DNA of 64,000 nt from Marsupella aquatica (GCA_973895155.1 OZ316892.1:12154238-12218237), one strand, 5' to 3'. Counted from the stretch's first letter, positions 9,986 to 44,503 are shown. Made by a program: numbers and translations. The notes: a model not told the origin generated them from the letters alone.

Positions 9986-10073
9986 AATGACTCTACAATT
10001 ATGACCGGTGTCTGGAATGACTATTGAGTATTTTAATCTTCATATCTCTTGGGTTCTTTAATGACTCTATAAG

Positions 10074-14909: not shown

Positions 14910-15961
14910 TCATTGAATGTGTGTTGCTACAAAACATATTTGAGCAAGTAAGTCTACTTCTTGATCAAACTTTCTATCTCGGTTGCAAGCGTCTTTAGGA
15001 TACAAGTTTCTAAACTTATAAGTAAGGTCCCTAGTTTTTAGGACTTCCCAAACAAATTGTCGCTTATTTTGTAAATATGGGCCGGAATAACCATCTCCAA
15101 GTAGACCTTTAGCAATTGAATTGATGTCACGGTCACTCATATCCTGCACCGGTGGCAAACTTTGCACGGTATGCTTCACTTCCTAGGAAATCTCGTCTGC
15201 TGAGTGATCAAGGACAGTGAAATTATCGACGATGCCAGCAACGCGGTGCCCCCAGGCTTGAGTGAGTCTTGCAAAGATATCACAATGCCTCCTTTGGGCT
15301 TCACCCTTCTTGTAGGCGGACCATTTTGGGTAGTTAACATTCAGAAAGTGTCTTACATCAAAAGCATTGTGCATTCTTTGAAGAAGTGGAAGCAATATCT
15401 CCATCAGAAAAGTGTCGCCTCCCATGTTGTGAACAAACAGAACTGGAAACAACGTGTTAACATTGGATTCGCGAAACACTTCAGAGGAGAGTCATCGATG
15501 AGAACAGTATTTGTCGAACCATATCTATTGCCAAAGCGATCCCAAACAGTTTGGATTTCCTTGAGAAGTATGTTTGCCTTCCCATCCGTAATATCTGACC
15601 TCAAAAAGCCAATGTCAAACATTTCTTCTTGGGTGAATACAAACTTGAACTGCTTTCGTTCAGCATCGTTGAAAACAAGATCCATCATTTCATTTGTTCT
15701 CGGCCTTCCCGCGCAAGTCCAAATTGCGACATCGTAATACCTGAAAATCACTTGTAAAAATTTGTGAAGACCTGGACGCTCCACATACATAAATGTGTTC
15801 CCGCCCCGTCTTCCCCTGTGAACGCCCCTCACAGATGTGAGCCTCCAAAATGGTCCGGAGCTTTTACTCTTTACGGAATTGAAACAAACCTTATTAAGGT
15901 AAAAAATCAAGAGCTTTCGCTTGATCTCTGAGTGGAGTTTGGGAACAAACTCTGCAAACAT
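14910..15961 (-). pseudogene. FCP1/SCP (NIF)-like HAD phosphatase-domain protein, disrupted
   Basis: KLLIFYLNK (degenerate DLD/DLN motif), ERPGLHKFL, YDVAIWT, LLKEIQTVW, TNTVLIDDSPLKC; frameshift near 15470 and in-frame TAG at 15183-15185. Confidence 0.75.
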
Positions 15962-16062
15962 AAAATAATCAAATCCGGATGGTTAGTCATTGGAACAGTC
16001 TTGACCAAAGACCATTTGAAGTCAAGTCAGTCCTTGAAATCAAATACCCCGTCTATCACCCT

Positions 16063-17447
16063 CTACACGCGTCTCGTGCAGAAATCACTGTATTGCGGAG
16101 GAAAGCTCAATCTATTCCTGAATAGACTTAAAATGATTTCTCTCCTCTCCAAATCTATGTCCTCTCCTGTGAAATCAAAAGGAAGGTCCAAACTACGGTA
16201 GTTTGCAAACTTCATAACTAACACACCACAATTATAGTAATCAGTTTGTCTTGGGATGTCCTTGGGACTATGTTTTGGCCATAGAGTAGCTAAGACTTGC
16301 TTGTGACTTCTGCTTTGAATTTCATCCTCGACATATCTGGCTAAGTTTTCAAGAACCTCTGGCCTATTGTTATGCAGAGAATCGAGATATTCTAAATACT
16401 TGTGTTCCATGTCAATCACAACTAACGCCCAATGATCGCCACCTTCGTGAATGGGGACGAATATTCGATGACAATCAATTAAGAAAAATATTTCAGTCGT
16501 GAAGTCCAAGCCTCCACGGATCGGTAAGAGTAGCCATTCGACGTCAGTGGAGTATAGAACCAACTGTCAAACACATGGCACTTCAGAAGCTCCCTGTCGG
16601 GATGTTCATTCCTCTCCACTATGAGACTTAAGTAGGCACTTAGAATATCGGAACTTATCCAATTTCTAGGACTCAAGCACCTCATCTGTCCACGAGTTAT
16701 TAGGCACCCATTAGTCCTGACTAGAACCGCATCCTGATCCAACAGATCACTGAGGCAATTGTCAATCCTCGTTTTGTTATCCATTGGATCCGGAGACGGG
16801 AGAGGACATTTGTTTATGTTTAGAGCTTTATGACTTGAGACAAGAGAGAGGAAATTGGCACCTGCCTCATTGGTTGCCTCCGCACGATCGACTCGCCTCT
16901 CTGACACCTCAGGAAGATTCACTATGAGAGAAAATGAGTTATCATTCTCTCTTGTTACTTCAGCGCTACGAGAGTCAATATTGTCATCGCATTGAAATTC
17001 AATCGGAGTGTGATCTTTTCCCACAATCCCAATCTCCTCCACAACAATCTCTTTTAAGGATCCACAATCCACCACCCCCTTCTCGACATCCTTGAGTGTA
17101 GTTTTTGCCTCACAATCATCAAAAACTGGGCCACTTTGAAGAACTGAAGCATCAACCAAAAGAGATTGCTCAACACCTCTGTTGCACTCTAACCCTAGAG
17201 GGTCAAATGAATTTTGAGGATCTACACGATACGTGTGTAGGGAGACATCATCCACAACATCTTCCAAAGTTTTGTTGAATGCAATCAACCTCGTGCCCGC
17301 CTGTAAGTTTTCAGAATTATCTGCCAAGTTACCATAACCTCCTTCAGCCATTAGAAGAGGAAATCCTTTGCGACTTGCAATTGGAACGACTGATGGACCA
17401 ATTCTCATCTCCCCAATGGAACTTAGAAACTTTTCCTCCACTTCCAC
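16063..17447 (-). pseudogene. Ulp1/SENP family C48 SUMO protease domain, frameshifted
   Basis: CLSPRNWISSDILSAY, CHVFDSWFY, IFVPIHEGGDHWALVVID, YLDSL, IPRQTDYYNCGV: His, Asp, Gln and Cys catalytic residues present; frameshift near 16500. Confidence 0.9.
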
Positions 17448-17477
17448 CCCGGTGTAATGTAAAACTGTACCGACAAT

Positions 17478-18374
17478 CTAATAATGATGGCCCTCTTTTG
17501 CTCCACTAGCATTGGAGTTTTGAGTCGAACTCCCTTCAAGGCCAGGAGGTTTCCACAATGATTTGGCAAACTGTGCAACTGGAACTAACAATTTAAGATT
17601 CTCTGCATAAGCTGTGAGGTCATAGACATCCTCACGGTCAGAGCAGAATGAAAAACACTCACGCTCAAGCATCAATGCATTCTTCAGTACCTGCCCTCTT
17701 GTGAAAAAATCCAGGACAATTTCCTCCCTCAAAGAAAATGCATGAATAAAACTCTGTAGGATGCGATTGGGCTTAATATTCAATGTGAATGGTCGTCCAG
17801 TCGTCAATTTGAAAGGAACAAGGCCTTCAAGTCGTGAGATCAATGTGTCCCTTTTTTCTCCTGAATATCTTCCTTCAAAATATCGGAATAATCCTCTCGA
17901 CTTGGCTTGATTGTCTCCTCCAGGTCGGACTCCTCCAACACAAAGTGTCCGGTAAAATCCTTGAAATGCTTTTCCCAATCAGGAACCCAATCTTGGGAGA
18001 CGCCAAGGAAAAGAACCATGTCCGCATCGCCTCTCATGTGTTGCGAAGGAGCATTAACCAAATAACTCCTCATGAACAAACCATATTCAAGGTGCGCATT
18101 ATAGTTCTCCGGGAGATCTCGAACAGCTTCAATTATTCTTGCAAGAATAATACCAAGACGAACAAAAAAAACAACTGTTACCAGATCATTTGTTGGGATA
18201 TTCACGACGATCTTCAAGAAGTTCAAGATTTTGGACTGCGTCCAAACCGGTTGTATGGGTCAAATCAACAATCGCTAGAGATGCCAATATTGACTCCTTG
18301 CAGCTAGCCGAATCAAAAGGAGGATCAGCATACGCGAGCAGATTTCCAATATAGAAAACTTGGTAAGGATCCAT
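17478..18374 (-). pseudogene. Degenerate beta-class amino (N6A/N4C) DNA methyltransferase-like domain
   Basis: IKPNRILQSFIHAFSLREEIVLDFFTRGQVLKNALMLERECFSFCSD matches the motif X-I-II pattern KP..L...I...S..GD.VLDPF.G.G....A..L.R..IG.E/D; upstream candidate motif IV LAYADPPF (or LAIVDLTH); split over three frames. Confidence 0.55.
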
Positions 18375-21300
18375 CCTTGCGCGGAGATGGCCGCCAACCT
18401 CTTTTGATGAATATTTCTCAACCTATTTTTCAGTGGCTCCGACATCTCTGCTTTTAATGACACCTTCACAAGGCTCTTGAAATATCCAGTGTCCACCATT
18501 GCACAACAACGATCCAATTCCTCATCTGTGAAATTATATTGTTGAACTACATCACCCCAAGTTGATCCTTGCGAGAAAACCCCTTCGTACTTCTCCCGAT
18601 AAAATCGAAGTATTGCCCCCTTAAGTTTGTCAATATACTTTGCTTTTCTTGCCAATTCTAACATATATGGCGGGAAGATCAGTCAAAGCATGTTTCTTTT
18701 TCATCAAAAGCGCCTCCCCCGAATTCACTTTGTGGAGGATTTCCAAGATGTCGGATTCTACGGCATCCTCAAAAACCCGGAATGTTGTCCTTGTCAACTG
18801 TTTTGCTTCTTTCGATTCTCCAGTCATTTGTCCGGTTGAATCCACAAGATTACCCTTGAGCCAATTATTGCAAACCCCTCTCCATAAAGAGTAGAGCTTC
18901 TGGGGAGCAAACAAAATCCAATTGTACTCGCTGATGCTATTCACCTTTAACGTAACTTTCGCAAGTGTTTCATACTCCTGGGAGGAAAGACCAAACAACT
19001 CAAAGTTAGTCAGCTCAAAGTTTTGAATCCCAAAATACTGGAAAGGCTCTACACGACTCTCGCGTAGAAAGGAGAGAAGGACAGAGTGTCTAAATTTTGT
19101 TCACAACTCTCATGGAGAACCAACCTGAAATTCTGGAGATTTCCAACCCGATGGAAGTGGACGAGCTGGTCGCCCCATATCATTGTATTGCATTCTTGCA
19201 TGTTTCACTTGGTCAATAAATGGAGATGAAAACCAATGTGCCTCCGCCTGAAGGTTGTTCGCGTGTGAAATTTCTACAAGAACTTTCACCGGAGTTGACC
19301 CTTTGAGAATTTGCGCTCGACAATATTTGAGCAAATTGGCTGTTTGCATGAGAGATGGTTGGGTCTTTGAACTTCGGATAATTTTCTTGGCGGCCATTGT
19401 GGAATGTTGACCACTGATGGCAAAGAACTTGAATTCCGCAAGCTTCTTGGTGTCAATATCCTTCCCGCAAGGTCAATTAAACTTGGTACTCCGTCGATCA
19501 TCTTGTAAGGAACCAAATCTGCAGGTAAAGGTTCTTGCCCTGCATTTGTCATCATCAGTTGCACAAGATGGTTGACATGCTCCTCATTGAGGAGTCTCTC
19601 ATTCATCTTTGCAGGAGGGGGATGGATGTTTTCAACCGGGACAGAAAAAAATTTGGATATCCTGAAACAATACCAAGACTTATTCAACTCCAATGTTTTT
19701 TTTGCAATCTCCAGACGAGCACGGTCGACAACTAGCTTTGCGGAACTAGGGTTCTCGTCAATATCCACATCTTCCTGATTTTTCTTTGCTTTCTTGGGCT
19801 TGCGAATGACAGCTTGAGAGGTGATGACAACCTTCTTCTCAATGTTTGGGGCCTTCTTCTCCACGGCTCTGACCATGGGAGCTTTCACAACAATTTCAGC
19901 CAACTCTGTGGTCGTTCCCCTTTGCTTAGGAGGCTTTGCCCTTGATTCCACAACTACTGATTCAACATCAAGTTTTGCTTTTTTCTTTCCCTTTGGTGAA
20001 GGATCTTTTACGACTCCCTTTTGCTTCAGCGTCCTGATCTCTGATTTGACCTTTTCAACTTTCTTCCTGACCGACGCAGATTTCTGTCCAATGCGAGACT
20101 TTTGAGACGGTTTCTCCTCCTGAGGTTTTGTTGGTGAAGCGACTTTCTTTGCATTGCTTGTTTTTCGTATTTTGTCCTTGATTCCTTGCACTTCCTTGAC
20201 AACTTGAATTCTCTTTTGGGAAGACGTTGCCTTTTCTTGTTTATCAACCGGAGATACGTTTTTTCCACCTTTCACTTGAGGCACGACTTCGCGCTGGTCA
20301 GAAACAAGAACTCTCTTTTGAGATGGTTTCTTGTCTTCTTTTTGTTCTTCCCGTTGAACCTTCTTGCGGTCTGTTTTTGCCGCAGGCGACTCATCTGCTT
20401 GATCAACAACTTTCACTCTCTTCCGAGGTAGTTTAGCTTCTTCTTTTATTTTCTCAAAATCAACCTTCTTCCGGCCTAGTTTCCCTGATGGTGATTTTTC
20501 GTCCACTGCTTTTTTCTTCCCACTGGGTGTGGATGACTCTGACACAACACCAGCTTTCCCCTTCCTAGGTGAAACTCCCTTTGAAGTCTTTGCGTATCGC
20601 TTCTCTGTTGGAGGCTTTGCTGGGGGGATGACCTCATTTTGTTGAATTTCCCCACTCTCAACATCATTGTTAATTGGTTCAACTCCACCTTCTAAACTTG
20701 TTGACTCTGACTCATTCTCTGACCCCGCCCGATTCTGAAAAGTCTTCTTGCTCTCTTCTTGGACACTTCCCTCCTCTCCGTCATCCTCATTTTCTGACTC
20801 ATAGACTGATATCGTTTCATGGGACTTTCTCTCTCCAGAGGCGGACAAGTCATCATCGGAGGAGTCATCCTTGTCCTTTCCCTCCCCATTCATCATTGTC
20901 AATCTCTTTTCCACCAGCTTCTTTCTTCCTGGGCGTACCAAGTCTTGGATTACTGGATGCCCTCAAATCCATTCCTCCACCTTTGTCTCACTAAAGTGTT
21001 TCATGAACACAACATTCGGAGAAATAGTCATCTTTCTCCTCCAGTCATCGTCTGGGATCTTCATCCGCATTATATGATCCACCTCTCATGTCCGAGAGAT
21101 AAAATATTTTGACTGCTTCATGACATAGGAGACCCGTCCGAGCCCCATAATTATTTCATCAGCCGTAAAGATCCGATCAGGTGAGAGCCATCTATCCGCC
21201 AAGGATCAAAGAAACCACATGAGACAACATTTGTGTCCTGGTTGTAAGGTTCAAGACAATGTGCTGAGCAAAACCCATGAAGTGGAGCAACCATCTGCTT

Positions 21301-21501
21301 GAAATTCCAAGAACTCTCAAACTCCAATGTCAGCAGAAGAGATGGGTTGTCCTTTGGGGACGCAAATCTCGTACAGTCTACGAGAGTGCCAAAACTCACA
21401 AAATTTCTTCGTCCATTTTCTGTTTTAACTCCCCTCACAATCAAACGGGAGTTGCCTTTGACTGGTTGCAATTCAAAAGACCATGAATTCACAATCACCA
21501 A
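18275..21501 (-). pseudogene. Lys/Glu-rich N-terminus, ParB/Srx-like domain and helical region of the large accessory protein
   Basis: FSVPVENIHPPP..MNERLLNEEHVNHLVQLM; after a frameshift at ~19462, KFFAISGQHSTMAA (cf. DGQHR/GERR box) and LVEISHANNLQAE (cf. ENLQRE); probable short intron ~19039-19124. Confidence 0.6.
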
Positions 21502-21989
21502 AATATTCTCAAGTTTTGCAACCGTTGGAGTTTCAATCCGAAGCCTGTCAGAACGGAAATAAACAGAGTGAACTCCTAGAAGACAAGGAGAAATATGTCA
21601 AACATCTGCACGACACTCGCGTAGAAAATAAAGTGAGCCCACAAACTGTTGCTTCATTATAAACAAAATGATGTGAAAACATCCTTTACAAAATGGCCTC
21701 TTTGGCGTGTAAACGGTCTGGCAAAAAATGACTATCAGAACTTTGGAGATAGTCTTATGAGCCATTTGAGCTCATCATGATTCAGAGTCAAAACATTGTC
21801 CAGATTTAAGAAAACAATCTAATCCGCTAGAAACATAAGAGTTCCCTAACTCAAAGTATGCGCACACATGTGGCCATGAAGGCAACAATTTTTCTTTTCC
21901 AATTCAATCCATCACACTTTGGTATCTAATTGTCTTTCCCTCTCTCGGCCATCGGCCAGCTCCTGTCGCAGGTCATGAACTTGACGATC

Positions 21990-22640
21990 TCAAAACTTCT
22001 CCATCTCAAGAGAAGCTTTCATGGACTTTGCCGCTACGTCGCAAGTAGTCAAATGCTGGATCTGTGCCCATTGATACTTTGCAAACATCTGCTCCCGTTC
22101 GTATTCTATTGCTTCCTTTTCATCCTCCAACGCTTTTTGGAGAATGGAACTCTCCATCAAACTCATATCAAATGCATAAATACTTTTTTGTAACAATCCC
22201 TCAATCTTCTCAAAATTGTCCTTGCGATGAGCGCCTTCCTCTAGAAAAGTTGAACGAACAAAGTCACATGAACAATGTTTTGATTCCATATGGTACATAT
22301 GAACGAGGATTCTACAAGACAGTCGCGTTGAAATCCATTATCTCCAAGATTGGAGAATCGGTTCTACGCGAGACTCGCGTAGAACTAAATAGGAAATTCT
22401 AAATTCTAACATAATGGCTCTCAAATAGAGACTATGGGTCGATGAAAGAGACCCATTCTACACGACTCTTGTGTAGAGCAGACTCAAGTTTAGCACAATC
22501 CATTGAAAACAGAGAAATGTAGGTCAAAATTACCTTTGAGCTTCCTCAATGCAGCGAGAGCAAGTAATTCGGCGTCATTTTCTGCCAAAGAAGTCGTCAT
22601 TCCCTTTGCACGTGCAAACTCCTCCACGATAATGTCAAGG
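21990..22640 (-). pseudogene. Upstream exon(s) of unknown coiled-coil-like protein
   Basis: ORF 21990-22298 plus a short exon ending ..ALRKLK|GTAATT near 22533. Confidence 0.35.
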
Positions 22641-22811
22641 ACCGATGAGTTGAGAAAAAACAAATAGAAAACATAAATGATCCAAGGTCCAAGGTCCGAG
22701 GTCCTTTTATAGTCCGAGACAAGCGTGAAAGAGCGTATCGTCCGAGGGGAGCGTGAAAGAGCGTATCATCCAAAGCGAGCGTGAAATGGCGTGAAACAAT
22801 CTAAGGGCCAA

Positions 22812-22935
22812 GCGTGAGAGAGAGAGAGAGAGCATGAGAGAAAGAAAGAGAGAGAGCAAGAGAGAAAGAGAGAGAGAGAGCGAGAGAGAAAGAGAGAGAG
22901 AGAGCGTGATTGAGAGAGAAAGACAATGAGAGCGA
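22812..22935. repeat. (GA)n microsatellite in the region between the divergent genes
   Basis: Long imperfect GAGAGA tract; CT-rich on the minus strand, typical of plant 5' leaders. Confidence 0.9.
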
Positions 22936-23429
22936 CAGCGAGCTGGAAAGCAACATATACCCCTTTCGCGTGGAATACTGTTGAACAATGATTGCGGTTG
23001 CTACCCGGCCGCCAAACCTGACACTCGGGATCCTGGACGTGTCACTAACATGGCAAACCACCACCCGCCGCCAAACCAATCTGCATTTATGGAAACGACT
23101 GCTCACCACACACCACGCCGCCACAAAAAAGTACTACACGACAATCTGGTAGAGTTGAATGTCTGAAATTCTTGCACCCCCACTCACTATATAACATGAC
23201 AGACCACTTTGTGCAAGTTATTTTTTGAGACCTGACTCATTCGTGCCTTCAGTCCGAGGTGGGACTGTCATTAAAGCGTGCTCTGTTGTTTCAGGTACTG
23301 CATCGGTACAGTTTCTCGTACAATTTTTCTCCTATCATTTTCAATTTTGTTTTAGTGATTGTGTCAGTATGTGAATGCATGTGCTTGAGTCTTTCCCATT
23401 GGGATGTGGTTGAACTGTATATTCAGTAG

Positions 23430-23765
23430 TAATCTCTATTGAATTTTGGACTTTTGATTGTCTACACGAGCCTCGTGTTGTTCCCTTCGTCTATGCAAAT
23501 ACAACGTTCAATAGGAAGTTCCTATAAGAAGAATACTCATTTCAAAATATCCATCTCTATATAGAAGGTTTAAGAGCCTACTAGTTGGATTCAGTCGTAA
23601 ACTGTATTGAATATTGGACTTTGGATTGTCTAACAAGCCTCGTGTTGTTCCCCTTGTCTATCCAAATACAACGTTCAATAGAAAGTTCCTCTAAGAAGAA
23701 TACTCATTTCAAAATATGCATCTCTATATGGAAGGTTTAAGAGCCTACTAGTGTGGATTCAGTCG
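23430..23765. repeat. 168-bp tandem repeat carrying the palindrome; third copy resumes at 33204
   Basis: TATTGAAT.TTGGACTTT.GATTGTCTA at ~23437, ~23605 and ~33211. Confidence 0.85.
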
Positions 23766-25063
23766 TGTGACGGGGCCAATGGTCCCAAGGAATGATTTTA
23801 AAGGGTAGTAGTGACGCATACATGTAAATACATAGATTTGTGTCAAGTTTTTTTTCTTTTGTTCTCTTACAACCTTGCCAACAATAGTTTATGCGCAATA
23901 TAGATGAGATAAGTAGTGATATTTTTTTCTAGGTCCTCTTAATTTTAGTTATCGGGCCAAGCCTCAGAGTTGGGGGGTTGGCCGCTGGCCGGTCCGGGCC
24001 AAGGCATGTGCCCTATTGCCATTCCATGCTGGAGCCGGGGGATTATCTAGCTTTACATTTTTATCACCAGCCCTAGTATTTGCGCATGGGGGCCGGTCGA
24101 AGGAGTTAGTGGCCAAGCACCGCATGAGGTGCCCCGGCCAGCAACATGGACCCTAGCACAAATTAGCCTCGGCCGAAAAGAGCTGGCCATAAGGGCAAGA
24201 AGTCCCGGAGAAGGGAGCCGGCCAAGAAGGAGGCCCGGCCTTAGCTTATAGGGGCACTAAGGGGGGATTAAATTCCCCTTTCCAAGAAAGCCAGCCAAGG
24301 GCAAGAGGCCTGGGAGAAGGGAGCCGGCCAGGAAGAGCAGGAGTGGAGCCGGCCCAGGAAGGCGCAAGAAAGAGGGCACGAGGAAGGAGCTGGCCAAAAG
24401 GTGGCCCGGGCTTAGGAGGAGGGAGCATGATCATGGGGATTAAATCCCCCTTCCAAGGGGAGGCCTCGGCCATAGGGGTGCGAGCCAAAGGGGAGCCGGC
24501 CAAGGGAAGGTGGCCCGGGAGGAGGGAGACGGCCAGGAGGCTTCGTGAACGAAGGGCAGGTGGCGCCAGAGGGAGCGAGAAAAGGTGAGGGGGGAGGGGA
24601 GTAATAAACCCCCCACACCTGGAGGAGGAGAAGGTACATAGGGGGCAGTTAAGGGCCCTTGGATCCCAGGGGGATCCCCAAACCCGGGAGCATAGGGCAC
24701 CGGGCCCCAAAGTGGTGGAGGGATTGGCCATTAAGGCGCCCATAGGGACGTGCGCCAGAGGGAGCGAGAGAGGGCGTGATGGGGGGAGGGGGATAATAAA
24801 TGCCCCAACCCTAGGGAGCAGGTCCGTGGGGGAGGGGGGCAGTTAAGGTCCCAAGGGATCCCCCAAATTGGGCAGAGCAGGTGCGTAAGGAGGAATGGGG
24901 AGGGGGATTAAAATCCCCCAAACCTGGGGGAGAAGGTTCATGGGGGAGGGAGGCAGTTAAGGTCCCTGGATCCCAGGGGATTCCCCCTTTGGGCAGAGCA
25001 GGTATGCAGGGTAGGAAGGGAGGCCTTGGCCATTAGGAGCGAAACTTGGGGGGAGGAGCGGCC

Positions 25064-25070
25064 TATATAA
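25064..25070 (+). promoter_or_regulatory. Putative TATA box for the long ORF
   Basis: CCTATATAAG after a G-rich repeated region and before a pyrimidine-rich leader. Confidence 0.55.
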
Positions 25071-25233
25071 GTGCTCATTTCCAACTCTTTTTTCCCAGTT
25101 TTTTTTGCGCTCCTCACTCATTGCCGAAACTCTTTTCTCTCCTCATCGATCAACCTTCCCCTTTGTGTCATGTACTACCTCTATTTTCCTTGAGTGATTC
25201 TGAGAGCGGCCATGGAGTGAGCTGGAGTGGGGA

Positions 25234-31884: not shown

Positions 31885-33410
31885 TAGTAGTACGGATGTT
31901 GACCGTACAGAGATTGGTTTTGGGCACATGTCCAACTGGCCAACTCATGGGCTTATTGGAAGGAGCTTGTCGAGCTGAATCTAACAATGTAAGACACGCC
32001 TCAAACGGAGTTAAAATGAGAGAGATACGGACCGGAGCATTTTGGTGAAGAATTAGGGTCCAATGTCGTACGGACGTCCGTACAACCTTCAGGAGAGTGA
32101 CCCGGCCAAGTCAGGGCATGTGGCCAGGGTACCTCAATTTGATGTCGTGATGGGAGGCCGGGACCGTACGGACTATTTGGACGCGGCGGTGACCAGGGTA
32201 AAGTTTGGGACTTGGCAAGCCATATCTCAGGCGTCTGATGTCCATTTTGGGAGCCGTTTTCAGGGTTACGATCAGGATGGCCGTGGCTACTCATAAAATT
32301 TCTCAGGACCAGATTTAGATCAACTTCTACTTTTGGCTATTTCCATGGTCACTCAGTGGGAGGCGTTGGCCACACTGTAGTAGGAAGGTAGGCCATGGCC
32401 TACATAGGACATTAGTCTAGTTTTGTTTAGTTGGTGTGATGGCCGATGAAGGCACCGTTGGCCTCACTTAAGTAGCAATAGGATTAGGGGTGCATGTGTG
32501 TGCCGCATGTGTAGAAAACTTTTAGGTTAGCGTCGTCGCCAGTGGATGGCGGCCAGCCAGGGCAGTGGCCGCCGCCACACCCTAGGGCTTGTGTGTTTAC
32601 ACATTGTTGTTTTCAGTATTTAACCAGCAGCCCCCGGTAGGAGCAGGGGGGAACTCAATCTAGTGTTGTTTTTGTGAGGATTAGCCTTCAACAAGAGTAG
32701 GGAATTGATCTGGAGTATTGAGGTGGAGAGGGCTCATTGTCCCGTGAGGTAGGAGTTGTGTAGACGATAGGAGACCGGGTTGCCCATGCAATGTGCTACC
32801 TTGGCCACTAATAGATATGGATTTGATTGAATTCTCATGACTTCTTGTGTGTTATTCCCTCTCTTGGTTGCACGATTGTGTTCTTCCCCTAGTATGAGTA
32901 TTTAGAGAAACTTACATGGCTTGGTCAACCCTGTGAGTGGGAGAGTGGTGACAGCACTTTGCCAAAGGCCAGGAGGAGTAGAAGCAAGGTAGTCCACGGG
33001 ACTTGATCAAAAGCAGATTACGTATAGTCGGTAGACTTGATCAAAAAATACATTTCCGGGAGCGGAAACAAATCTACTCATCCTTAGTATGAAATTGATC
33101 CATATAACGTCCCTCCACGTCCCCGTCATACGATACAAACAATTTTTAGTGGAACCATGTGGTGTTTGTTGTGTTAGTCATTTGATAAGCAAGTGACAAG
33201 TCGTAATCTCTATTGAATATTGGACTTTTGATTGTCTACACGAGTCTCGTGTTTTCTATTTAATGAAAGAACCTTCAACTTTGTAGATGACTGTCTCCAT
33301 TGCTTGTTCTGTGATATTTGCTTAGATTAGAGTTAGAGATTTTCACACGAGCCTCGTGTAGGCTGTTTTAAAAGATGTTTTTGTTGCAAATATTTTTCTT
33401 CAGATCCAGA

Positions 33411-36400
33411 ATGGCTTCAAGAACGCAGCTTCTACTTGGAGAAGTCGTTCACCTGCTTATCAATGAACAACCAGTTGCTGGTGGAAAGGTTTTTTGTGTT
33501 CTATCTTTCGACACCTGCCACTCTGTGTTGCTTGGAGCAGAACGGATAAGTGTGGTGGTGGACAATGCTTTTTTTCACCTCGAACAGCTGCCGAATCCAC
33601 ATGTGGGAGCTGATCTAGTAGGAGAGTCGGTGAACTCCGTTGTTTTGTGGGATCGGCAAGATGTCCGCCATGCAAATGACATGAATCTTGGAGGTCAAAC
33701 AGATTCAGCTTATGTCATTGATGACCCAGTTGACAATATTCAAGGTAATTCTGAATCAGCCACCGGACTGGAGGGGAAAAAGGTTTTTGCGGAGGATCTG
33801 AAAGATCGTAGCACATGGTTCAAGAAGTTTGCCCTTCTCTATGCGGACAACGGAGAAACCTTGCTTGCAAGAGGTTGCATCATTATCCCACATCCTCTCG
33901 CGTCCATTAACAACGAGCGAGTTGGGGAAGATCATGTTGGTGTGAATATTTCGAGTCTAGCTATTGAAGCTGGCTTGGGAAAAGTTTTGTTCCCTCAATT
34001 TGTTGACGGATCACCATGCACAGTTTGATGGCCAATCAACAAAACTAGGATTGAGCCTAGAATGGAATGTCTGAGTGATCTTTTAGATTGGAATGATGGT
34101 AACGATGAGGGAGTTAGAATTCTCTCATATATCAAGCCAAAAAGGGGCTATAACAATCAACAAAGAAATCCTCAAGATTCAAACAAGAAGGAGAGAAAAT
34201 GACTCGAGAAAAGACGCAATCAAAAGATGTCTCGAGTGTCCATAGATACTCTTTATCGGGTTGATTGTTGCTCACAGAGTTGTTGTCAACGACAACTCCG
34301 TGAGACCGTCACTAACATTAGGGAAGAGTACTATGGTCTATCTCATGTTGAGCAACATACTTACGTGCTCAATCATCTTCATTGTCGTGACGATGAAACC
34401 ATCGCCTTAGGCATGATTGTATTCAAGGGAAGCAGGATCTGCAAGGAAGCTTTCTAGAATATTCATGGATTTTCTCGAGGAACATTTTACACAATGTATT
34501 CAGGATACATGGTGGGGGCAAAAGTTGGTGTTCATGGGAATGAATGGACCATCAAGACCAAAGACTACGTTGTGTTGTTCACAAAATCAATTCGAAGTAT
34601 CCTACATAAATGTGCAGAACCAATGCCACATCTTCACAAAATTGGTGTTTCAGGCAAGTAGGAAGTTGTTTTCAGGGTTCCAATAAGTTTCAGGAGAAAA
34701 GATGTTTTTGAAGAGGCTTGCGAGCTTAACAAAAACCTGGGTATTCACTCGCCCTCTCTCCCAACCTTCTACAAGCTTTTGGATAAATATTTCCCCAATT
34801 TCCAATTCCAAGGTTGGAGCAACTTTGCAAAATGCGATCTCTGCACGACCATTAAAGAAACACTTCGGGGGGAGAAACGGATGGATAAGATTTTAGAAAT
34901 CAAGGCAAAGCGCAAACGGCATATGTTGGAACAACAATCACGCAGGAGTATGTACTATGCAGCAAAACTTGCGGCGGACCAAGAGCCCAACAAATATTTT
35001 TCTGTGATTCACGATAAAATGGATCAAGCCAAGACCGGAATCCCTAAAATGACTTCTACACTCAAGAGCCAAGGAGGCAAATCAATCCCGCTACCAATGA
35101 CGCTGATGGGGATGTTAACGCATGGACGGGAGCCTGGAATTTATGCACATTTTGCCCTTTCTGGTTTGTGGGCAAGCGGTCCTGATTTTACAGTCTCTTT
35201 GCTTGCAAAGTTATTTTGTGATCTCGAATCATTTGTGGGAGATAAGACCGGCGATCTAGCTCTCAACACCTCTAACGTCACAGATCCAATCTTTGTATCC
35301 CTCTTGGATTGGCGTGCCTTTGAGGTAGGATACCTTGAAACCAAAAAGATCTCTCTCGCTCACTTCGCAGGGCTTGGTGACTCACACAAGAGTCGCGTAG
35401 AGCCTTCAACATCGCTACCCTTCAAGGCGCTTCCTTGACACCTCCACCTTCAACTTGATAACTTGGGAAAGGATAACAAGAACCAGACAGTTCTGGCTTT
35501 CTGTAGCGAGCTTGTTCTAAGAGGAGTGTTTGAGTCTGTAACTCTTTCCTTTTTGATGGTGGGGCACACTCATGAGGATGTGGATGCCTTCTTCTCTAGA
35601 GTCGGGATAAGGATCTACAATCGAGAGCTTACCACATTTTTTGGTTTGATGGCGGAGGTTTGGGAGTGCAAGAAGAAACATCCGGTTCCAAGGTTCATCC
35701 GCAAAGTTGCATCTTACAAAGCTTATGTAGGACCATTTGTCAAAGGATCCAGGGTCAATCAACACCTATTCAATTCTTGTTCTCAATGAAGGAGAATGTC
35801 CCAGTCTACCAATATCGAGAGAAAATTGATACGCCTTGGCTACCGACAAAGGGTCAAACAATTTGGTTGTTTGACTTAGAGAGAAACCAATACAAATTTC
35901 CAATTGGAAGTCCTTATTCCAAGTGGATGGAGTCTTCTCACAAGCGAGCGAATGACATTTTGGAATACTTGATCCATTATATCTCATGGTTGAAGACTGC
36001 ATGGAAGGATGTTACATTGGAGGGATATCGTCTCCAAAGTCCAGAGATTCAATACTGGAAAAACATTGTTTCTGTGTTTCAGGACACACTTTGCTCTCCT
36101 TCGCTAGCAGGGGTAGATTATCCATTACTTGCTGGATTCTAGCCTCGAACGAACCATGGAACTGGGTATTGTCAAGATGGTCAGAACATGGATACCAACC
36201 CAAGCGAAGACAATGGGGTGATGCATAATCTGGAAAGAGAGCTTCAAGAAGATGAAGAAGAGAGGCAAACAATCTTTGTCGGACACCCTTCTCAGCGTGA
36301 GAGGTCAAGATTTACTCCTCTAGAAGATATTAAAAAGAATACATTTGTTATTATTTGACCCACCGATGAATTTGAAACCAGAATTCCGCAACAATTTTGG

Positions 36401-36620
36401 CTTGCAAAAGCAATCGATTGTGTCGTAAGAGATCCCGACGATGCGCATGTTGGAGAGTTCCAAGTTGAATGGTGGCACCCTCTTAATCGCAAGAGTTTGG
36501 CAACCAAATCAAAAAGATATCAGGACTGCTTTAATTCAAGCAAACGTGGGAAATGGATCCCAATTACCTCATTCCCCCAATCATGAATGATTGGATCCTA
36601 GCAACTTCAACCATCACCGG
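33411..36620 (+). pseudogene. DUF7869/Sola-like DDD transposase, disrupted
   Basis: CCSQSCC..IREEY, ICKEAF*NIHGFS, FAKCDLC, IHDKMDQAK, LQLDNLGKDNKN, FLMVGHTHEDVDAFFS; multiple stops and frameshifts. Confidence 0.75.
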
Positions 36621-36946
36621 ATGGACATCAAAAGCAAAAGCAAAGGTAAAAGTTCCAGTAAGAGTTTTGGAAAGTGTGAAGGTTTACATTTCAAAAACGA
36701 TTGAAGAGAACTAAAATCCTTTCTCGACTCGAGACTCGCGTGGAAGACACTTGGTGATGCACGGCACGTCCTAATTGTCAGGTTCAGGATTGTGGGAGAA
36801 CAATAGGCGAGGTTGGAGCTGGTTTGTTCCAATCACTTTTCGCACGAGGCTCGTGTAGGTCGGATTACTTAGCTCGAGGATCATTTTTTGGAAAGTGAAA
36901 GGTGTGTACTTGTACTCAATGTCATATTCACTGCAATGGCGTGCAT

Positions 36947-37290
36947 TGTTGAGCATAGACGACATTCGCAACGGCAAGCCCATGAACCATCCAACGCACA
37001 ATAGTCGACGCAGAGAGATACGTGGTTCACCTCCACATGAGGCTATGTCCACGGGAACACACAAGAGCTTTACTGCACTCTAGGCCGACCGGCCATACCA
37101 AGCATCCACAGCACAAGCTCTTCCTATCTCTCAACTAGCTCCGTAACAATGAGCCTAAGTTCCACTAGGGTCTGGCATCAGCCCTGGCTATATGCACAAC
37201 AGCACTACCGCTAACATTAGCTAAGTCCTAACCCGAGTTAGCCTAACTCTAGTTAGCTCATGAGTCACAAGACTAGAGCAATATCTAACA
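36947..37290 (-). repeat. 3' LTR
   Basis: TGTTGAGCATAG...TATCTAACA; 5 mismatches to 43454-43797 by my count. Confidence 0.97.
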
Positions 37291-37303
37291 AACTCCCCCT
37301 TGA
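37291..37303 (-). other. Polypurine tract
   Basis: TCAAGGGGGAGTT on the minus strand, adjacent to the 3' LTR. Confidence 0.9.
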
Positions 37304-37497
37304 CTCTTGTCTTGGGGACTAGACTAAATGCTACCATATGGAATCCTCAGCGGGAAGTTCTAGACAATCACCAAACCAGGTCTCCCCCTAAAAACCACAA
37401 GGGTTAACTAAGGGTTAACTAGAACTAAGCCGTAGCCTAACAGGAATGAGTAATCCATATACAAAGAGTCACACATTGCTAAATAACTCTACTTGCA

Positions 37498-40400
37498 CTA
37501 CAACTGCAAAACCTGCAAAGTAGCACGGTGTCTTGAGAAACTCTCCAAAGGAATCACTTTGGTAAAGGCATCAGCAGGATTGAGCTTTCCATCAATCTTG
37601 ACTAGCTCAAAAGTTTTATCAGACACTGCTTGCCTGATAAAATGGTACCTGATATCAATGTGCTTCACCCTGCTATCCATCACCTGGTTAGCAGCCAAGT
37701 GAAGAGCACTCTGACTATCACAGTTTAGAGTCATTTTTCCATGCTCTAAACCCATCTCCGCGATCAACTTATCCAACCAAATTGCTTCCTTTGTAGCTTC
37801 TGCTGCTGCAACATACTCTGCTTCTGTAGTAGACTGAGATATGCACTTCTGCAAGGTAGATTTCCAACTGATACATCCTCCTCCAAGAGTGTATACAAAC
37901 CCAGTTGTAGATCTCCTTGTATCCAGATAGCTTCCATAGTCAGAATCTACATAGCCAACTAACGTTCTATTTGATCTGTTATTAAATAGTAATCCATAGT
38001 CCTGTGTTCCCTTCACATACCTGAGAATCCATTTCACAGCTTCCCAATGTACCTTCCCTGGATTTGACATGAATCTGCTAACCTTGCCCATCGCTAGGGC
38101 CAAGTCAGGCCTAGTACAAGTCATCAAATACATCAGACTGCCTACTGCCTTCTCATAAGGAATCTTAGCCATTAGACCTTTCTCCACAACATCCGTAGGA
38201 GAGAAAGCCGATGATAACTTGAAATGTGAAGCTAAAGGAATACTCACTGGCTTACAGCTCTCCATGTTGAATCGTGCAAGTACTTTCCTCGCATACTGGC
38301 CTTGACTCAAGCACAACTGTCCAGTCTCAGAGTTCCTAAAAATCTCCATCCCTAAGATCCTCTTGGCCTTACCAAGATCCTTCATCTTGAATTCAACGCT
38401 CAATTTCGCCTTGAGACTGTCAACCTCAGATTGATCTTTAGCCACAATTAGCATGTCATCCACATAGATCACCAGAATGATGAAACCAAATACATCATTC
38501 TTGACTGATTTTGTATACACACAAGGATCATACACCATCCTTGTAAAACCTTGAGCAAGCATGAAATCATCAAACCGCTTGTTCCACTGTCTGGGAGACT
38601 GCTTCAATCCATACAAGGATTTGAGCAATCTGCAAACTAAGTTCTCTTGGCCCTTCTTCATAAAGCCTAGTGGCTGTCTCATGAAGATCATCTCTTCCAA
38701 GTTGCCATAGAGAAAAGCAGTAACAACATCCACCTGATCCATCACCAGATTAAAAAACACAACAAGCTGACACAAGATCCGAATTGTGGAATACTTAGCC
38801 ACCGGTACGTGAAAAGACCTCATTGTAATCCACTCCTTTCTCCTGAGTGAACCCCTTGGCAACAAGCCTTGCCTTGTAGATCTTATCTCCACCCTCTGAA
38901 GGACTGTCCTTCAACTTGTAAATCCACTTGCTGTCCACCACTTGTTGACCTCTTGGAAGCTCCACCAGCTCCCATGTCTTGTTGTCACTCAAAGATTGCA
39001 ATTCCCTCTACATTGCTGCATTCCACTCATGCTTCTGCTCTGAAGCACAAGCCTCACTATACGAAGAAGGCTCTCTTTCTTCCAAGATCAAAGCCATATC
39101 ATCTTCATCAGGTGCAATGTCAATATCATCTAGCTTAGATGAGTCTGCCCATTGACCATACCTGGTAGGAGCTCTAGTAGAACGATTGGAAGTTCTTCTA
39201 GTAGATGACTCTAGCTGATCTGCTGCTGCTGCTGGCTGAATTTGAGGTACCCCAGCAACAATCTGCTCCTCTTGTTCCATCATAGGAACCAGCTCCAAGC
39301 CCGGAGCTTCTCCATCTCTCCTGTCATGAACTGCATCATGACTAATCTCCCCCTCAACCTGGTCCGGGATGGGAGATTTCCCCTTGTCAGTATGGGAGTC
39401 CTGAGAACTCTCCCCCTCCTTTGATGATCTGGATTCATTAAAGGACACATCTCTACTGACAATTAGTTTACAGGTTACTGGATCCCATAACCTATAACCC
39501 TTAACACCTTTCTGATAGCCAAGGAAAATGCACTTCTTGGACTTGGACTCCAGCTTGGATCGAAGTTGGGAAGGTGTAAGCACATAAGCATCACATCCAA
39601 AAATCCTCAGATGTGAGTAATCTGCTGGACGCCCGTACCTCATTTCAAATGGCGTCTTGAATCCAATAGAACTGGATGGAGAAAAATTTACCAAATAAGC
39701 TGCAGTGTTGACAGCTTCAGCCCAAAACTCATGTGGTAAGCATGATTGACTCAACATACTCCTCGAGCGATCCAATAGTGTTCGGTTGAGTCTCTCAGAA
39801 ACACCATTCTGTTGAGGAGTATAGCTTGTTGTGAGATGGCGGGTAATCCCCTGCTCCTTACAATACGTTCCAAATTCACCGGAACTGTATTCACCGCCGT
39901 TATCCAATCGAAGATATCTCACCTTATTACCAGTCTGATTTTCAACTTGGGCTTTCCACTCCTTAAAAGTGGCAAAAACATCAGACTTATTGTGTAGAAA
40001 GTATATCCACACATACCTTGAGTAATTGTCAATGAACGTGACATAGTATAACCGTCCAGAATGTGAGGGAGTAGGGGCGGGACCCCACACATCACTATGT
40101 ACATACTCAAGTACCTCCTTGCTGGTGTGAGTTCCAACTCCGAAGGGTTTCCTGTGCTGCTTCCCTAGCACACAGTGCTCACAAAATTCTAACTTACAAG
40201 ATTGCAAATTAGAAAGTAATCCTTTCTTCTGAAGAATAACCAAACCTTTTTCACTCATGTGGCCCAAACGGAAGTGCCACAGCCGGGCCGTCTCCTCATG
40301 AGATAAGGTTACATTGGCTTCATCATAGACTACACTGCCCTCCATAACGTATAGATTGCAATGTCTCTTTCCCTTCAATACAACTTTAGTACCAGTTGAA

Positions 40401-41773
40401 ACCTGAAGGACACCATTAGCAGAACTCCACTGATGGCCATTTGCCTCTAAAACTCCAAGTGAAATGAGATTTTTCATCATGTTGGGAATATGTCTCACAT
40501 TCCTCAATGTTCTCACAGCACCATCAAACATCTGAAATCTTACAGATCCAAGTCCAACAACTTGACATGGGATTCCATTTCCCATCAACACTGACCCGTT
40601 GGAAACCGTGTAAGAACTGAAATAATCTCTTCTAGAGCAAATGTGAAAAGTACATGCACTATCTAGAATCCAGTCATCACTACCTGGATTTGACACTACG
40701 TTGAGAGCATAACCTTGACATCACAATATGTCATCATCATCGAGTAAATCTACCTCATGCGAGCTCGATGCCGCGTTAGCAGAGGCAGTAGGGACCTTTA
40801 CTCGACAATCCCTTTTCATGTGGCCAGGCTTGCCACAATTCCAACATGCAAAAGGCTTTCTCTCTTGCGATTTCCCTCTGGATTTAGATCTCCCCCGTGA
40901 TGTAGATCTAAACCTATTTTGTCTATTCGTGCGTTGCGCTGCTCTTCCCCATTCACATTGAGCGCAGTGCCAGAAGAAGATGATGTTTGTGATTGACCCA
41001 ACTTCTTCTGAGCATCATCAGACAGTAATGAGCTCACCACCTCATTATACGAAATGGACTTCAGATCTCTGTACAAGAGCACCTATTTCAAGCCCTGATA
41101 AGACGACGGTAAGGAGCTTAGCAGAAGCAAGGCCTTATCCTCATCTTCAACTCCTTTTTCTAAGTTTGACAAATCCACCGCTAGACTGTCAAACTCATCC
41201 AGGTGATCCTGTATCTTGCTCCCTTCCTTGAGCCTGCGGCTCATCAAGAGAGACTTCTTGTACAGCCGGTCTGACGCATCTTCCCGGTAGTATTTCTCTC
41301 TTAGAGCCTTGAACAGTGACGTGCAATTCGCATAATCATCCAATTGCTTGATGATGTGCGGCTTGAGATATAGCATCACTGCATTGACAGCAATCACCTG
41401 CTCCTGTCTCCACTGCTTCTCTGAGATCTCCTCTTCTCCATCATACTGCTCTCGCGTAGAGAGCAGATGAGCTAAGCCCATGGCCCGAAGGACACCCTTC
41501 ACTTGCTTCTCCCACAGCAAGTAATCAGTACGACCATCGTACTTCTCCACCTCAAACTCACTCCTCCAAATCTAGCCATCTCCCTCTTCTTTCCAACTAC
41601 CGACAGCTCTGGTAGTAACACAGCTTCCTCCACTGCACGTCGCACCGGTGATCATATCGGTGTCACTAGTTCCTCCTCAAACGGTAGCAGCTCCTCAGAC
41701 TCTCCGTCTGACCGTCGCGATCCTGAAGCTCCACCGATGCCAATTCTTCCAGTATCCTCCGAGTCACTCATAT
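37498..41773 (-). pseudogene. Copia gag-pol polyprotein with stops and frameshifts
   Basis: gag EKYDGRTDY; PR WILDSACTFH; IN HSDVWGP..YYVTFIDNYSR..QNGVSERLNRT; RT LLKSLYGLKQSPR, YVDDML; RH SQSTTEAEY, KHIDIRYHF. In-frame TAGs at 41083 and 39008; frameshifts near 40950 and 38810. Confidence 0.95.
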
Positions 41774-43439
41774 GAAACAATCACAAAAAAATGTCTTTTT
41801 TCGAAACTTCTCACAAAACTCAAAACTCAACACCGCCGCGTAGCCCACGAAGCTAGGAGTCCAATACTGAAAGCCGAAATCAAAATCAAAATTCGACAGA
41901 AAAGTTATTCAAATTTCGGTCGGGGTGGGTAAAACCTTGGGAAACTCCCCTGTTTTGACCACCTCGGAGAATACCCAGTATAACCCGTCGTTGGAATTGC
42001 GATGTGATCGGTGCGCCGCGATGCTAACTCCAGTGGCAACGTCCTCACCGAAAAAGAACCAAAAAAGTTACCGTTCGGCGGACAGAATCTTTGTCGAACG
42101 GCTGAAAAACAGCTCTTTGTTTTTTGGGAATATTCCCGCACAGTATAGCAGGTCTCACAGGGGGCCGTTCCCCCTGTCGGAGCGGTTAAAACGGAGGGTC
42201 ACAGGGCCCAGGACAGCCAATAGAAGAGTCAGCAAGAAAGACAAAAAATTGGCCTTGAAAAGGGGGTGTAAAGGCCCTTTGGCAAAAATACGCCTTAAAA
42301 GCACGACGCGAGGCGGGCCAGGCAGAGTACAGGGATACGGGTGGGGGTAAACACGGGCGGGAAGGGAGGAACGACGGAGCCGCGTACAGGCGGTAGCCGC
42401 CGTGTATAGGCAGAGCTGGGCTGGGGGTCGCGAGTACGTCGTCGCGAGGCAGCGGCCGGCCGTGAGGGAGTTACAAAGGGCGAGGGCCTGTATACGGGCT
42501 CACTTAGGGCCGAGGGGGGCTAAATGCGGCCAGCAGCAGCTGCAAACGCACCGGTCGGCGCTGCGCTGCGCCGTGTATTCAGGGTGCACCGGGGTTTGCA
42601 AAGGTAGGGGGGCGCGGGCCTAGCAGGGGCGTCCAGCGAGCGGGGAGGGGGGGGAAACAAATACACAGGGGGAGGAGTCGGGGCCCAAGTGTGTGTATAC
42701 ACCTCGTATACACACACAGGGACCAAACCCCCTTTAAACGCCAAAAATGACCCCCCCAAGCAAAAATCAGTCACACACCTTAATTGCCGCTGATTTAAAC
42801 GAGAAAAGTGAATGCCGCCAAAGGGATATGTAGCCGAAGTGCACCGACACAGTCTGCAGCTCCAGCAGAGTAAATTATTTCCGCCGCGTCGCCTTCACTC
42901 CGCGTCAAGTACCAATCCGGGCTCAAAACGACCGCCTCGCCGTGATCAAACCGTAGAGCCGTGGCACTTCGCGTCTCTCCCAACAAGTCGGACGTCACAA
43001 AGGGAAACCCGTTTCAGATGAGAACAAGCTCCATAGCTTGTGAAAAAACCTGAACGTCTCCTTCACTCGTCACGACGCACTCGGTAACAACTCGGCAGCA
43101 ATCCAGCTACCAAAACGACCAGCTCGCTTCAACCTTCAACTTGAGCTATAATGTGTGATCCCTCCCGTACCGCACAGCTCACTCCGTTGAAAAATGCAAA
43201 CTCTGGTCTCTCCCCCGAAAACCCGTCGAACACGAATAAAACCTGAACGACGCAAACTTTGATTCCTCCGCACCACAGATACCGATCAGCGAGTTCTAAC
43301 CACCGTTAGAAAGCCCTCTCACTAACCTATCCGCTCAGCCACACACATTCGAGTTTCATGCGACAAAACTCTGAATGTGTCACCGACAATGAACGCTGGA
43401 AAAACCTGTCACGAAAAAACCTCGTCACCTCCCAGGCAT

Positions 43440-43451
43440 GCTCTGATACCA
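43440..43451 (-). other. Primer binding site (initiator tRNA-Met)
   Basis: TGGTATCAGAGC on the minus strand, 2 nt inside the 5' LTR. Confidence 0.95.
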
Positions 43452-43453
43452 CT

Positions 43454-43797
43454 TGTTGAGCATAGACGACATTCGCAACGGCAAGCCCATGAACCATCCA
43501 ACGCACAATAGTCGACACAGAGAGATACGTGGTTCACCTCCACATGAGGCTACGTCCACGGGAACACACAAGAGCTTTACTGCACTCTAGGCCGACCGGC
43601 CATACCAAGCATCCACAGCACAAGCTCTTCCTATCTCTCAACTAGCTCCGTAACAATGAGCCTAAGTTCCACCAGGGTCTGGCATCAGCCCTGGCTATAT
43701 GCACAACAGCACTACCGCTAACATTAGCTAAGTCCTAACCCGAGTTAGCCTAACTATAGTTAGGTCATGAGTCACAAGACTAGAGCAATATCTAACA
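43454..43797 (-). repeat. 5' LTR
   Basis: Direct repeat of 36947-37290. Confidence 0.97.
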
Positions 43798-44503
43798 TGC
43801 ATGTCGACCTTTGGCTCGTGTCCGTTGTGGCCACAATGATGGTTTGGTGCCGGATCACGAGATTTGGGTAGGATGTGCTCAATTTCCTCCGTTATTGAGG
43901 TTAAATTGACAGGTGCTTTTGTATCATAATTGTGCTACACGAGGCTCGCGTAGGATGTCATAATCAACTTATGACTTGCAAATCCCGGATCTTATCACAG
44001 ACACCCATATCACACGGCATGTACTAATTGTCGGGTTGAGGACTGTGGGAGAACAATAGGCGAGGTTGGAGTTGGTTGGTTCCATTCACTTTCCGCACGA
44101 GGCTCGTGTAGGCCAAACTACTCAGCTCTAGGATCATTATGACCTTGGAAAGTGAAAGGTGTGTACTTGTACTGAATGTCACTTTCACTGCAATGGCGCG
44201 CATGTCAACCTATGGCTCGGGTCCGTTGTGGCCACAATGATGGTGTGGTGCCGGGTCACGGGTTTTAGTATCATAATTGTGCCATACATGGCTCGCGTAG
44301 GATGTCATAATGAACTTATGACTTGCAAATCCTGGATCTCATCACACACACCTTTATTCGAGAGGCTTATTTCTCTCCTTCAAGTTATGCTTTGTGATGA
44401 ACTTCTGGCTCAGTCTCCAACATCTCTCTGATCAAATCTTCCTTTTCCCAATTGAGCGTTTGACAACCATTTTGGATCGTGGTGATTTTCCTTAACTTTC
44501 ATA

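Follow-up and report, generated by a model that had tools for sequence, protein, structure and literature searches.

The closest described relative of the transposon reported here is Sola1-1_Ec32 of Ectocarpus. The passage on it in PMC12477816 describes a brown-algal element of 21.5 kb, in which a gene for a 1104-aa protein with a ParB-like and an N4C/N6A methyltransferase part lies opposite the transposase gene. The accessory protein is proposed there to bind the DNA of its own element and to modify it, the best Repbase match is the transposase of the moss element Sola1-1_PPa, and nested insertions are present. ParB-methyltransferase fusions are also described as common in phages (10.1101/2025.10.10.680097), and Iyer et al. 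2016, in the part concerned, list chlorophyte and chytrid fusions of ParB, helix-turn-helix (HTH) and Dam. Among plant transposons, VANDALs are described as Mutator-like, with VANC proteins that are MAIN-related and dicot-specific and whose motif, YAGTATTAY, is short and has no long dyad. The targets of VANC21, in the relevant part of PMC5735166, lie in introns and in intergenic and terminal non-coding DNA and have multiplied as tandem repeats. In this study we analysed a 64,000-nucleotide stretch of Marsupella aquatica (GCA_973895155.1 OZ316892.1:12154238-12218237; the window), which contains a decayed copy of a transposon with a ParB-like and methyltransferase-like gene opposite its transposase gene and with a 19-bp palindrome confined to its native sequence.

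The element shares with Sola1-1_Ec32, as that element is described, the two-gene opposite-strand layout, the order of a ParB-like and then an N4C/N6A methyltransferase domain, and nested insertions. A sequence-only reading of the window had presented the locus as a candidate new system; because Sola1-1_Ec32 is published, the core architecture is not new, and the idea of self-modification is likewise in print (PMC12477816). Compared by description, the element differs in what is new here: it is a land-plant variant, its catalytic DPPY and GxxR motifs appear eroded, Ulp1 and NIF genes have been added, and a dispersed palindrome provides a candidate target site. The string "palindrom" has 0 occurrences in the main text of PMC12477816, and its passage on the element names no target site. 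Literature searches found no printed target site, no Ulp1/NIF version, no eroded land-plant version and no ParB paper on moss or liverwort transposons; these negatives are weak, as the searches also missed the Ectocarpus passage.

A palindrome confined to native transposon sequence

The stretch 14569-44859 is a single decayed copy of a DNA transposon, split by two younger insertions (Table 1), and about 14.0 kb of native sequence is left once both are subtracted. Positions 14910-44300 are thus not one unit, as had been read from the sequence, but are interrupted by a GC-rich insertion and a Copia element. The empty site of the Copia element is seen as a contig joint (36940 to 43799) in public run X2. 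Both true ends of the transposon are missing from the window. On the left it borders at about 14568 on a Copia-related piece of very high copy number, and on the right it meets a CACTA terminus at 44860, with the depth in run X3 going from 123 to 440 at this point; no inverted repeat was found between its left and right zones.

A total of 13 matches to CTACRCGAGNCTCGYGTAG (CTACRCGAG-N-CTCGYGTAG) were detected at three or fewer mismatches, from 16063 to 44111, against a mean of 0.00 in 100 shuffles. A looser scan (five or fewer mismatches) gave 18 sites, every one between 16063 and 44300. All 13 lie in the native sequence, with 0 in the 16.3 kb of nested inserts and 0 in the flanks of about 34 kb; the palindrome is therefore scattered through the transposon proper, but not through the whole unit as first described. 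Eleven of the 13 are non-coding, though coding DNA makes up about 70% of the native sequence (binomial p=9e-5, and p=7e-4 with tandem duplicates dropped; based on an approximate gene model in which the small upstream frame counts as non-coding). They are found in the 147-nt intron of the accessory gene, in a second, predicted intron, in the 167-bp repeat between the divergent genes and in the ~400-bp units 3' of the transposase gene. Each ~400-bp unit, the first of which is split by the Copia element, has two palindromes, and the predicted intron 22241-22533 of the small coiled-coil-like frame has three (22312, 22364 and 22458).

This distribution over introns, intergenic DNA and tandem repeats upholds the VANC-like placement suggested by the sequence-only reading. 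As VANDALs are described, the likeness extends to short motifs in non-coding DNA and tandem repeats of an element with an accessory gene. No homology to VANC was found, no Mutator-like element or plant-mobile-domain Pfam match was obtained for the open reading frames (ORFs) of the element, and the likeness is at most a functional analogy.

The palindrome might instead be the target of a host transcription factor or have arisen as a side effect of local duplication, with the accessory genes as hitch-hikers without joint function. Non-coding DNA gains motifs more freely, six palindromes of four or fewer mismatches are contained in tandem duplicates, and capture of Ulp1 is common among plant transposons. 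However, flanking similarity is absent among at least nine of the sites, the long CpG-rich dyad persists in this element only, and a ParB-methyltransferase gene opposite the transposase is also described in the brown-algal Sola1 (PMC12477816), which makes such an origin improbable.

The variable pair 5/15 of the palindrome (n=13) is A/T in eight sites, G/C in one, A/C in three and T/C in one. Four of the 13 are thus non-complementary, mostly with each half-site consensus kept. Half-sites that vary independently are expected of a dyad site read by a protein, and not of a hairpin. A structured-RNA reading was rejected on these pairs and on the lack of an Rfam match.

The ParB-like and methyltransferase-like accessory protein

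The accessory gene, the Ulp1 domain and the NIF-family gene are on the minus strand and run divergently from the plus-strand transposase gene, so that the divergent layout noted from the sequence is confirmed in the window copy. Two apparent TGA stops of the accessory gene (about 19100-19112) fall inside the intron 18978-19124, and many gene calls of homologues stop at the same FQV junction. With this intron removed and N placeholders set at contig indels, 21597 to 17843 forms a single frame interrupted only by two TGA codons; at one of these (20965), all four runs have a sense codon. The frameshifts near 17840 and 16485 and the TAG at 17478-17480 are not accounted for by the best-supported contig difference rows, so that the fusion of Ulp1 to the accessory protein is unproven. 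When the frameshifted ORFs from 21501 to 16063 were joined in the sequence-only reading, the order of Lys-rich, ParB-like, helical and methyltransferase-like parts was correct, since it agrees with intact homologues in tblastn; one protein through Ulp1 goes beyond this. The N-terminal domain of about 190 residues is conserved in P0010, P0012, P0022, P0028, P0032, P0057 and P0116. The helical region is a candidate DNA-reading domain.

A total of 73 relatives of the accessory protein were found with HMMER over representatives (E up to 0.001); a word-based search with a 120-aa ParB fragment gave no match. Thirty clusters were looked up, consisting of 27 of the 73 relatives, one further accessory match and two transposases, and seven of them had a named organism, three Calypogeia fissa and four Riccia sorocarpa, which points to a non-seed land plant as the likely host. 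In the intact homologues P0074 and P0078, the ParB-like, helical and methyltransferase-like parts are contained in one protein. A small conserved domain, HY(V/I)W..GP.KG, is found at the C-termini of P0013, P0051, P0074, P0078 and P0079, where the window family has Ulp1. No relatives were found in viral contigs or GTDB genomes, by a weak scan that needs exact peptides, and the metagenome scan gave one related locus, L001, of 1.8 kb and without a long palindrome. Among the few Riccia locus tags seen, accessory and transposase matches were not adjacent, which is uninformative.

The ParB-like fold, first proposed from sequence, is supported by structural matches of homologue models to Noc, ParB and Srx. 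With the model of the N-terminal catalytic-like domain of P0019, the top 8 of 20 rows of a wide structure search were of ParB/Srx fold (Z 4.7-7.9), the best with Z 7.9, root-mean-square deviation (rmsd) 4.2 and 120 residues aligned. Foldseek on the isolated domain placed Noc, ParB and Srx at the head (E >=0.03), and a whole homologue model matched Noc 7nfu_B with E=1.4e-3 over 312 columns. The scores for the ParB/Srx fold are moderate, but they agree with one another. Sequence profiles gave little: no Pfam ParB match in the 37 ORFs of the window or in the 73 homologues, 0 matches in a PDB sequence search with the ParB profile, nothing useful in NCBIfam, and only a weak ParB match in PHROGs (E=0.07, 1 of 12 proteins). 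A G-Q-H-S-x-x-A motif, a Ser and an Asn are near-invariant (39-42 of 42 homologues), and this conservation in sequence indicates a conserved site. The arginine of GxxR in Box II occurs in 0 of 42 homologues, with Ser in 40 and Leu in 2. Its exchange to alanine abolishes nucleoside triphosphate binding in the ParB folds tested in the corresponding part of 10.1101/2025.10.10.680097. Since it is missing from all homologues examined, activity as a cytidine triphosphate (CTP) clamp, as in canonical ParB, is doubtful. In an atlas feature search, the ParB-like fragment 19113-19472 was nearest to unnamed animal clusters (0.93) and fungal DUF3723 clusters (0.90-0.91). DUF3723 is conserved cargo of fungal Starship elements, and there is a hint that their DUF3723 proteins may hold a ParB-like domain. 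Starships differ in being mobilised by a tyrosine recombinase, PF12520 had no match among the 73 homologues, and the likeness is a lead only.

The methyltransferase-like domain is of the beta class according to homologue models, while the DPPF named as its catalytic motif in the sequence-only reading is likely not that motif. Pfam N6_N4_Mtase reached only E=0.018 in the window, under the cut-off; a profile of homologues matched M.RsrI with E=5e-6. The AlphaFold model of P0074 has a predicted local distance difference test score (pLDDT) above 90 for 402 of 1009 residues, and its residues 463-728 match CcrM with Z 15.3, rmsd 4.3 and 209 residues aligned, followed by MboII (Z 14.9), RsrI (14.3), rotifer N4CMT (13.7) and PvuII (13.5). 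Motif IV precedes motif I, as in the beta class. At the motif-IV position, assigned by strand order in the model and aligned ranges and not by printed residue pairs, nine of the 11 homologue rows read D-F-(A/S/T) at the strand end; one row shares D-L-T with the window copy, and one ends earlier. Pro-Pro-Tyr, which is described as holding the target base in CcrM and N4CMT, is replaced by F-A/S/T/G-R/Q/W. As the catalytic (D/N/S)PP(Y/F/W) after the motif-IV strand is absent from the homologues examined, the DNA-modifying activity proposed earlier is doubtful. The region of motif I, for S-adenosylmethionine (SAM), reads D(F/I)FS(G/S)G in eight homologue sequences and DFFTRG in the window copy, and is one residue shorter than in RsrI. 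DPPF as motif IV was rejected because it is not conserved in homologues, lies on an upstream coil in the model and would differ in strand order. Judged by these motifs, both active sites of the accessory protein appear to be eroded in this land-plant family.

An active but atypical methyltransferase, writing N4-methylcytosine (4mC) or N6-methyladenine (6mA) at or near the palindromes and so marking the element, in the way suggested for the algal elements, would fit the retention of the whole beta-class fold and of the SAM region NP..K..DFFSGG, and the motif-IV Asp is present in all 10 homologues covering the position. A liverwort also has a beta-class 4mC writer already, Marchantia DN4MT1 as described, and a single plain sequence alignment sets a phage DPPY near the DPPF region. 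This alignment, however, is visibly unreliable there, and the replacement of Pro-Pro-Tyr together with the unconserved DPPF on a coil leaves an active writer very unlikely. Rotifer N4CMT and DN4MT1 are similar to the accessory protein in the beta-class fold, and DN4MT1 is from a liverwort, as are the named homologues; by their descriptions they differ in keeping SPPY, in being host genes and in having no ParB domain reported.

Phage and prophage ParB-N6_N4_Mtase fusions, and ParB/Noc with parS/NBS, offer the same two folds in the same order and a palindromic DNA site, respectively. Unlike these, the accessory gene is spliced and eukaryotic, with the GxxR arginine replaced. Because the SAM region finds its best phage match in a stand-alone methylase of 240 aa, an origin from a ready-made phage fusion is not established.

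Associated genes, transposase and repeat family

The Ulp1 protease assigned from sequence was confirmed by Pfam Peptidase_C48 (16066-16566, E=3e-19), and its His, Asp, Gln and Cys are intact in DHW, YLDS and RQTDYYNCG as aligned with SENP2. For the FCP1-like phosphatase, the NIF family membership holds (Pfam NIF 15407-15982, E=2e-11), but the motif of this copy, FYLNK, is non-canonical. The usual motif of the NIF family is DxDxT. Deep contigs place indels of this gene at 15462 and 14963, leaving one internal TAG. Since neither Peptidase_C48 nor NIF was found in the 73 + 4 homologues scanned, both are taken as additions of this family. Fusions of Ulp1 to transposon domains are common in rice.

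The transposase contains Pfam DUF7869 at 35439-35786 (E=4e-30) and is 52% identical to P0083 over residues 33-782. Among 13 homologues, three of them from Riccia, HDKMDQ is present in 13 and LQ(L/M)DN in 10, the other three ending earlier. The invariant residues are D538/D541 and D687, along with GHTHED(V/I)D. Searches found no match of the transposase profile in the PDB, no relatives in viral contigs (a weak, exact-peptide scan) and nothing on DUF7869 in the literature. The transposon is likely of the Sola1 kind, from the Ectocarpus layout, the moss best match of that element and transposase motifs that we take to resemble Sola1. Two copies of a small domain (PF26133) stand at the transposase start (33411-34030), and a similar-looking frame is present at 52262-52873 in the neighbouring CACTA.

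The palindromes may also be binding sites of the transposase, for synapsis or self-activation, with the ParB-methyltransferase, Ulp1 and NIF genes in another role or as cargo. The relevant part of 10.64898/2026.08.24.746577 describes transposases able to activate their own copies sequence-specifically, the transposase here carries extra N- and C-terminal domains, and sites lie close around its gene (33236, 33343, 36725 and 36840). This explanation is rather unlikely, as palindromes are also found in internal introns and intergenic DNA and not just near the ends, and as a perfect dyad suits readers of the ParB type or dimeric beta-class methyltransferases.

The transposon is an interspersed multi-copy family. 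Contigs of the public runs span its native parts end to end, in three of four runs on the left and four of four on the right, and include near-identical and about 10% divergent forms (run X5, with a small share of 0.11, was left out). The deepest contigs carry indels at the window frameshifts 19461, 18663, 18395, 18252, 21200, 15462 and 14963. The main family form is without most of the frameshifts of this copy and largely open, and the family is younger than this copy looks. The copy is decayed, as the label of pseudogene implied, but two of its "stops" are intronic. In run X4 the depth of the main contigs is 176-227 over the accessory genes and 153-213 over the transposase; for a minor set of about 10% divergence, the values are 34-38 and 39. 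These matched depths fit one element; the opposite-strand linkage is seen in this copy only, and the contig difference tables hold best-supported rows.

The seven in-frame stops of the transposase are all TGA or TAG. Three runs differ from the window by A>G at 101-105 and T>C at 98-102 places, against 44-51 for G>A and 38-43 for C>T, a ratio of about 2:1 in favour of C-to-T decay of this copy. The observed/expected CpG ratio is 0.56-0.72 in the element vs 0.32-0.43 in three neighbours (the Copia coding region, the CACTA and the satellite), and this retention leans weakly to an escape from methylation.

Other features of the window were recorded as well. The GC-rich insertion has no matching pair of long terminal repeats (LTRs), and its long coiled-coil ORFs (803, 267 and 321 aa) have no significant Pfam family. 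More element sequence at family depth is found at 44353-44859, with a Glu/Arg-rich frame (44486-44902) that is cut by the CACTA insertion and is possibly another accessory gene. On the left, 1-10886 is made up of ~580-bp units in an array (5.2-10 kb) and of arrays with units of 83 bp and 43 bp; it closes with a CACTA-type terminus TTTTCTTCTAGTG at 10886 and is likely the long subterminal region of another CACTA. It is followed at 12500-14568 by gag and leader sequence of a truncated Copia, which shows 71% similarity to the nested one. On the right, 49281-51426 and 60149-62206 form an inverted duplication (2.1 kb, 84% identical) of a gene that encodes NSD-like PHD fingers. The left arm is bordered directly on its inner side by a CACTA terminus (51434), and between the arms are Transposase_21, DUF4218 and DUF4216 genes and a two-BRCT gene (58779-59642).

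Table 1. Features of the transposon copy and its nested insertions, in window coordinates (TSD, target site duplication; HMM, hidden Markov model).
Feature	Position	Strand	Basis or remark
Visible transposon span	14569..44859		Contig depth steps at ~14568 and 44860; CACTA terminus CACTAGAAGAAAAC at 44860
NIF/FCP1-family phosphatase-like gene, ~360 codons, C-terminal extension, broken here	14913..15982	-	NIF E=2e-11; UBLCP1 E=5e-5
Linker and Ulp1/C48 SUMO-protease domain	16063..17477	-	Pfam E=3e-19; SENP2 E=4e-19; upstream fusion unproven
Beta-class N4C/N6A methyltransferase-fold domain	17568..18370	-	Profile to M.RsrI; homologue model to CcrM
Conserved helical region	18371..18977	-	High pLDDT in homologue model
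GT..AG intron, 147 nt, phase 0	18978..19124	-	Two TGA codons and one palindrome inside
ParB/sulfiredoxin-fold domain, GQHSxxA replacing GxxRxxA	19125..19714	-	
Acidic and Lys-rich low-complexity linker	19715..20962	-	Translation
N-terminal domain, fold unassigned	20963..21597	-	HMM from 7 homologues matches 20963-21169, domain E=8e-7; no Pfam match
Small spliced coiled-coil-like reading frame (predicted)	21990..22640	-	Six-frame translation; splice contexts
167-bp tandem repeat between divergent genes, with palindrome	23421..23765		Third partial unit resumes 33199-33253
Nested GC-rich insertion, 9.4 kb	23766..33198	+	TG..CA ends; 5-bp TSD AGTCG; 0 palindromes
DUF7869 DDD/E-type transposase gene, ~1,100 codons	33372..36710	+	Pfam; 7 in-frame TGA/TAG stops, 2 frameshifts
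Two ~400-bp tandem units, 3' of transposase	36760..44352		blastn; 36760-36946 + 43798-44012; 44013-44352
Nested Ty1/Copia retrotransposon	36947..43797	-	LTRs 98.6% identical; TSD TGCAT; 0 palindromes
Palindromes	16063, 17222, 19049, 21606, 22364, 22458, 23462, 33236, 33343, 36725, 36840, 43935, 44093		
Weaker palindromes	22312, 23134, 35382, 44282		

Proposed self-recognition by the accessory protein

On the basis of the homologue folds, the layout of the genes, the repeat family and the restriction and placement of the palindromes, we propose that the accessory protein binds the palindromes of its own element and uses the linked SUMO protease to oppose silencing, a reading that we hold to be evenly balanced between right and wrong. 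The protein, as a dimer, would read both half-sites of the palindrome. Its ParB domain may bind a ligand or dimerise, in a manner other than the canonical CTP clamp, and the methyltransferase fold would act as a DNA-binding or base-flipping module and not as a writer. Ulp1, fused or adjacent, would then strip SUMO from silencing factors at marked copies, and the palindromes would multiply by tandem duplication, as VANC targets do. SUMO has a role in plant transposon silencing.

Several points weigh against this proposal. The ParB Z-scores are below 8, Foldseek on the isolated domain gives E 0.03 or worse, and an HTH in the accessory protein is putative. Ulp1 and NIF are lacking in the scanned homologues and those running past the methyltransferase finish in a different small domain, so that Ulp1 is family-specific and could be passive cargo. 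No linkage in other species was seen, the only related locus, L001, being 1.8 kb long; depth of contigs does not equal copy number, and none of the contigs bridges both genes. Because of its C-to-T decay, this copy was likely methylated. The CpG contrast is non-specific, as values of 0.59 and 0.71 are reached in the GC-rich insert and the left Copia piece, and for CHG the element is the lower one. Moreover, sequence-specific activation can also be exerted by transposases and TnpA-type proteins, according to the part of 10.64898/2026.08.24.746577 that treats them.

A bolder form of the proposed self-recognition, which we regard as doubtful, is a eukaryotic parS-like system: a prokaryote-derived ParB and pseudo-methyltransferase would load at the palindromes, spread over the transposon and deliver the SUMO protease. 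Early-diverging land plants would thereby have a sequence-specific anti-silencing system of an origin independent of VANC, in which each family has its own co-evolving pair of site and protein.

The candidate site is long, concrete and restricted to the element, and makes the self-marking idea published for algal transposons directly testable. If binding and anti-silencing are true, the palindrome and its reader might serve as a tool for targeted chromatin editing, and they would constitute a second, independent sequence-specific anti-silencing system of plants, built from bacterial parts.

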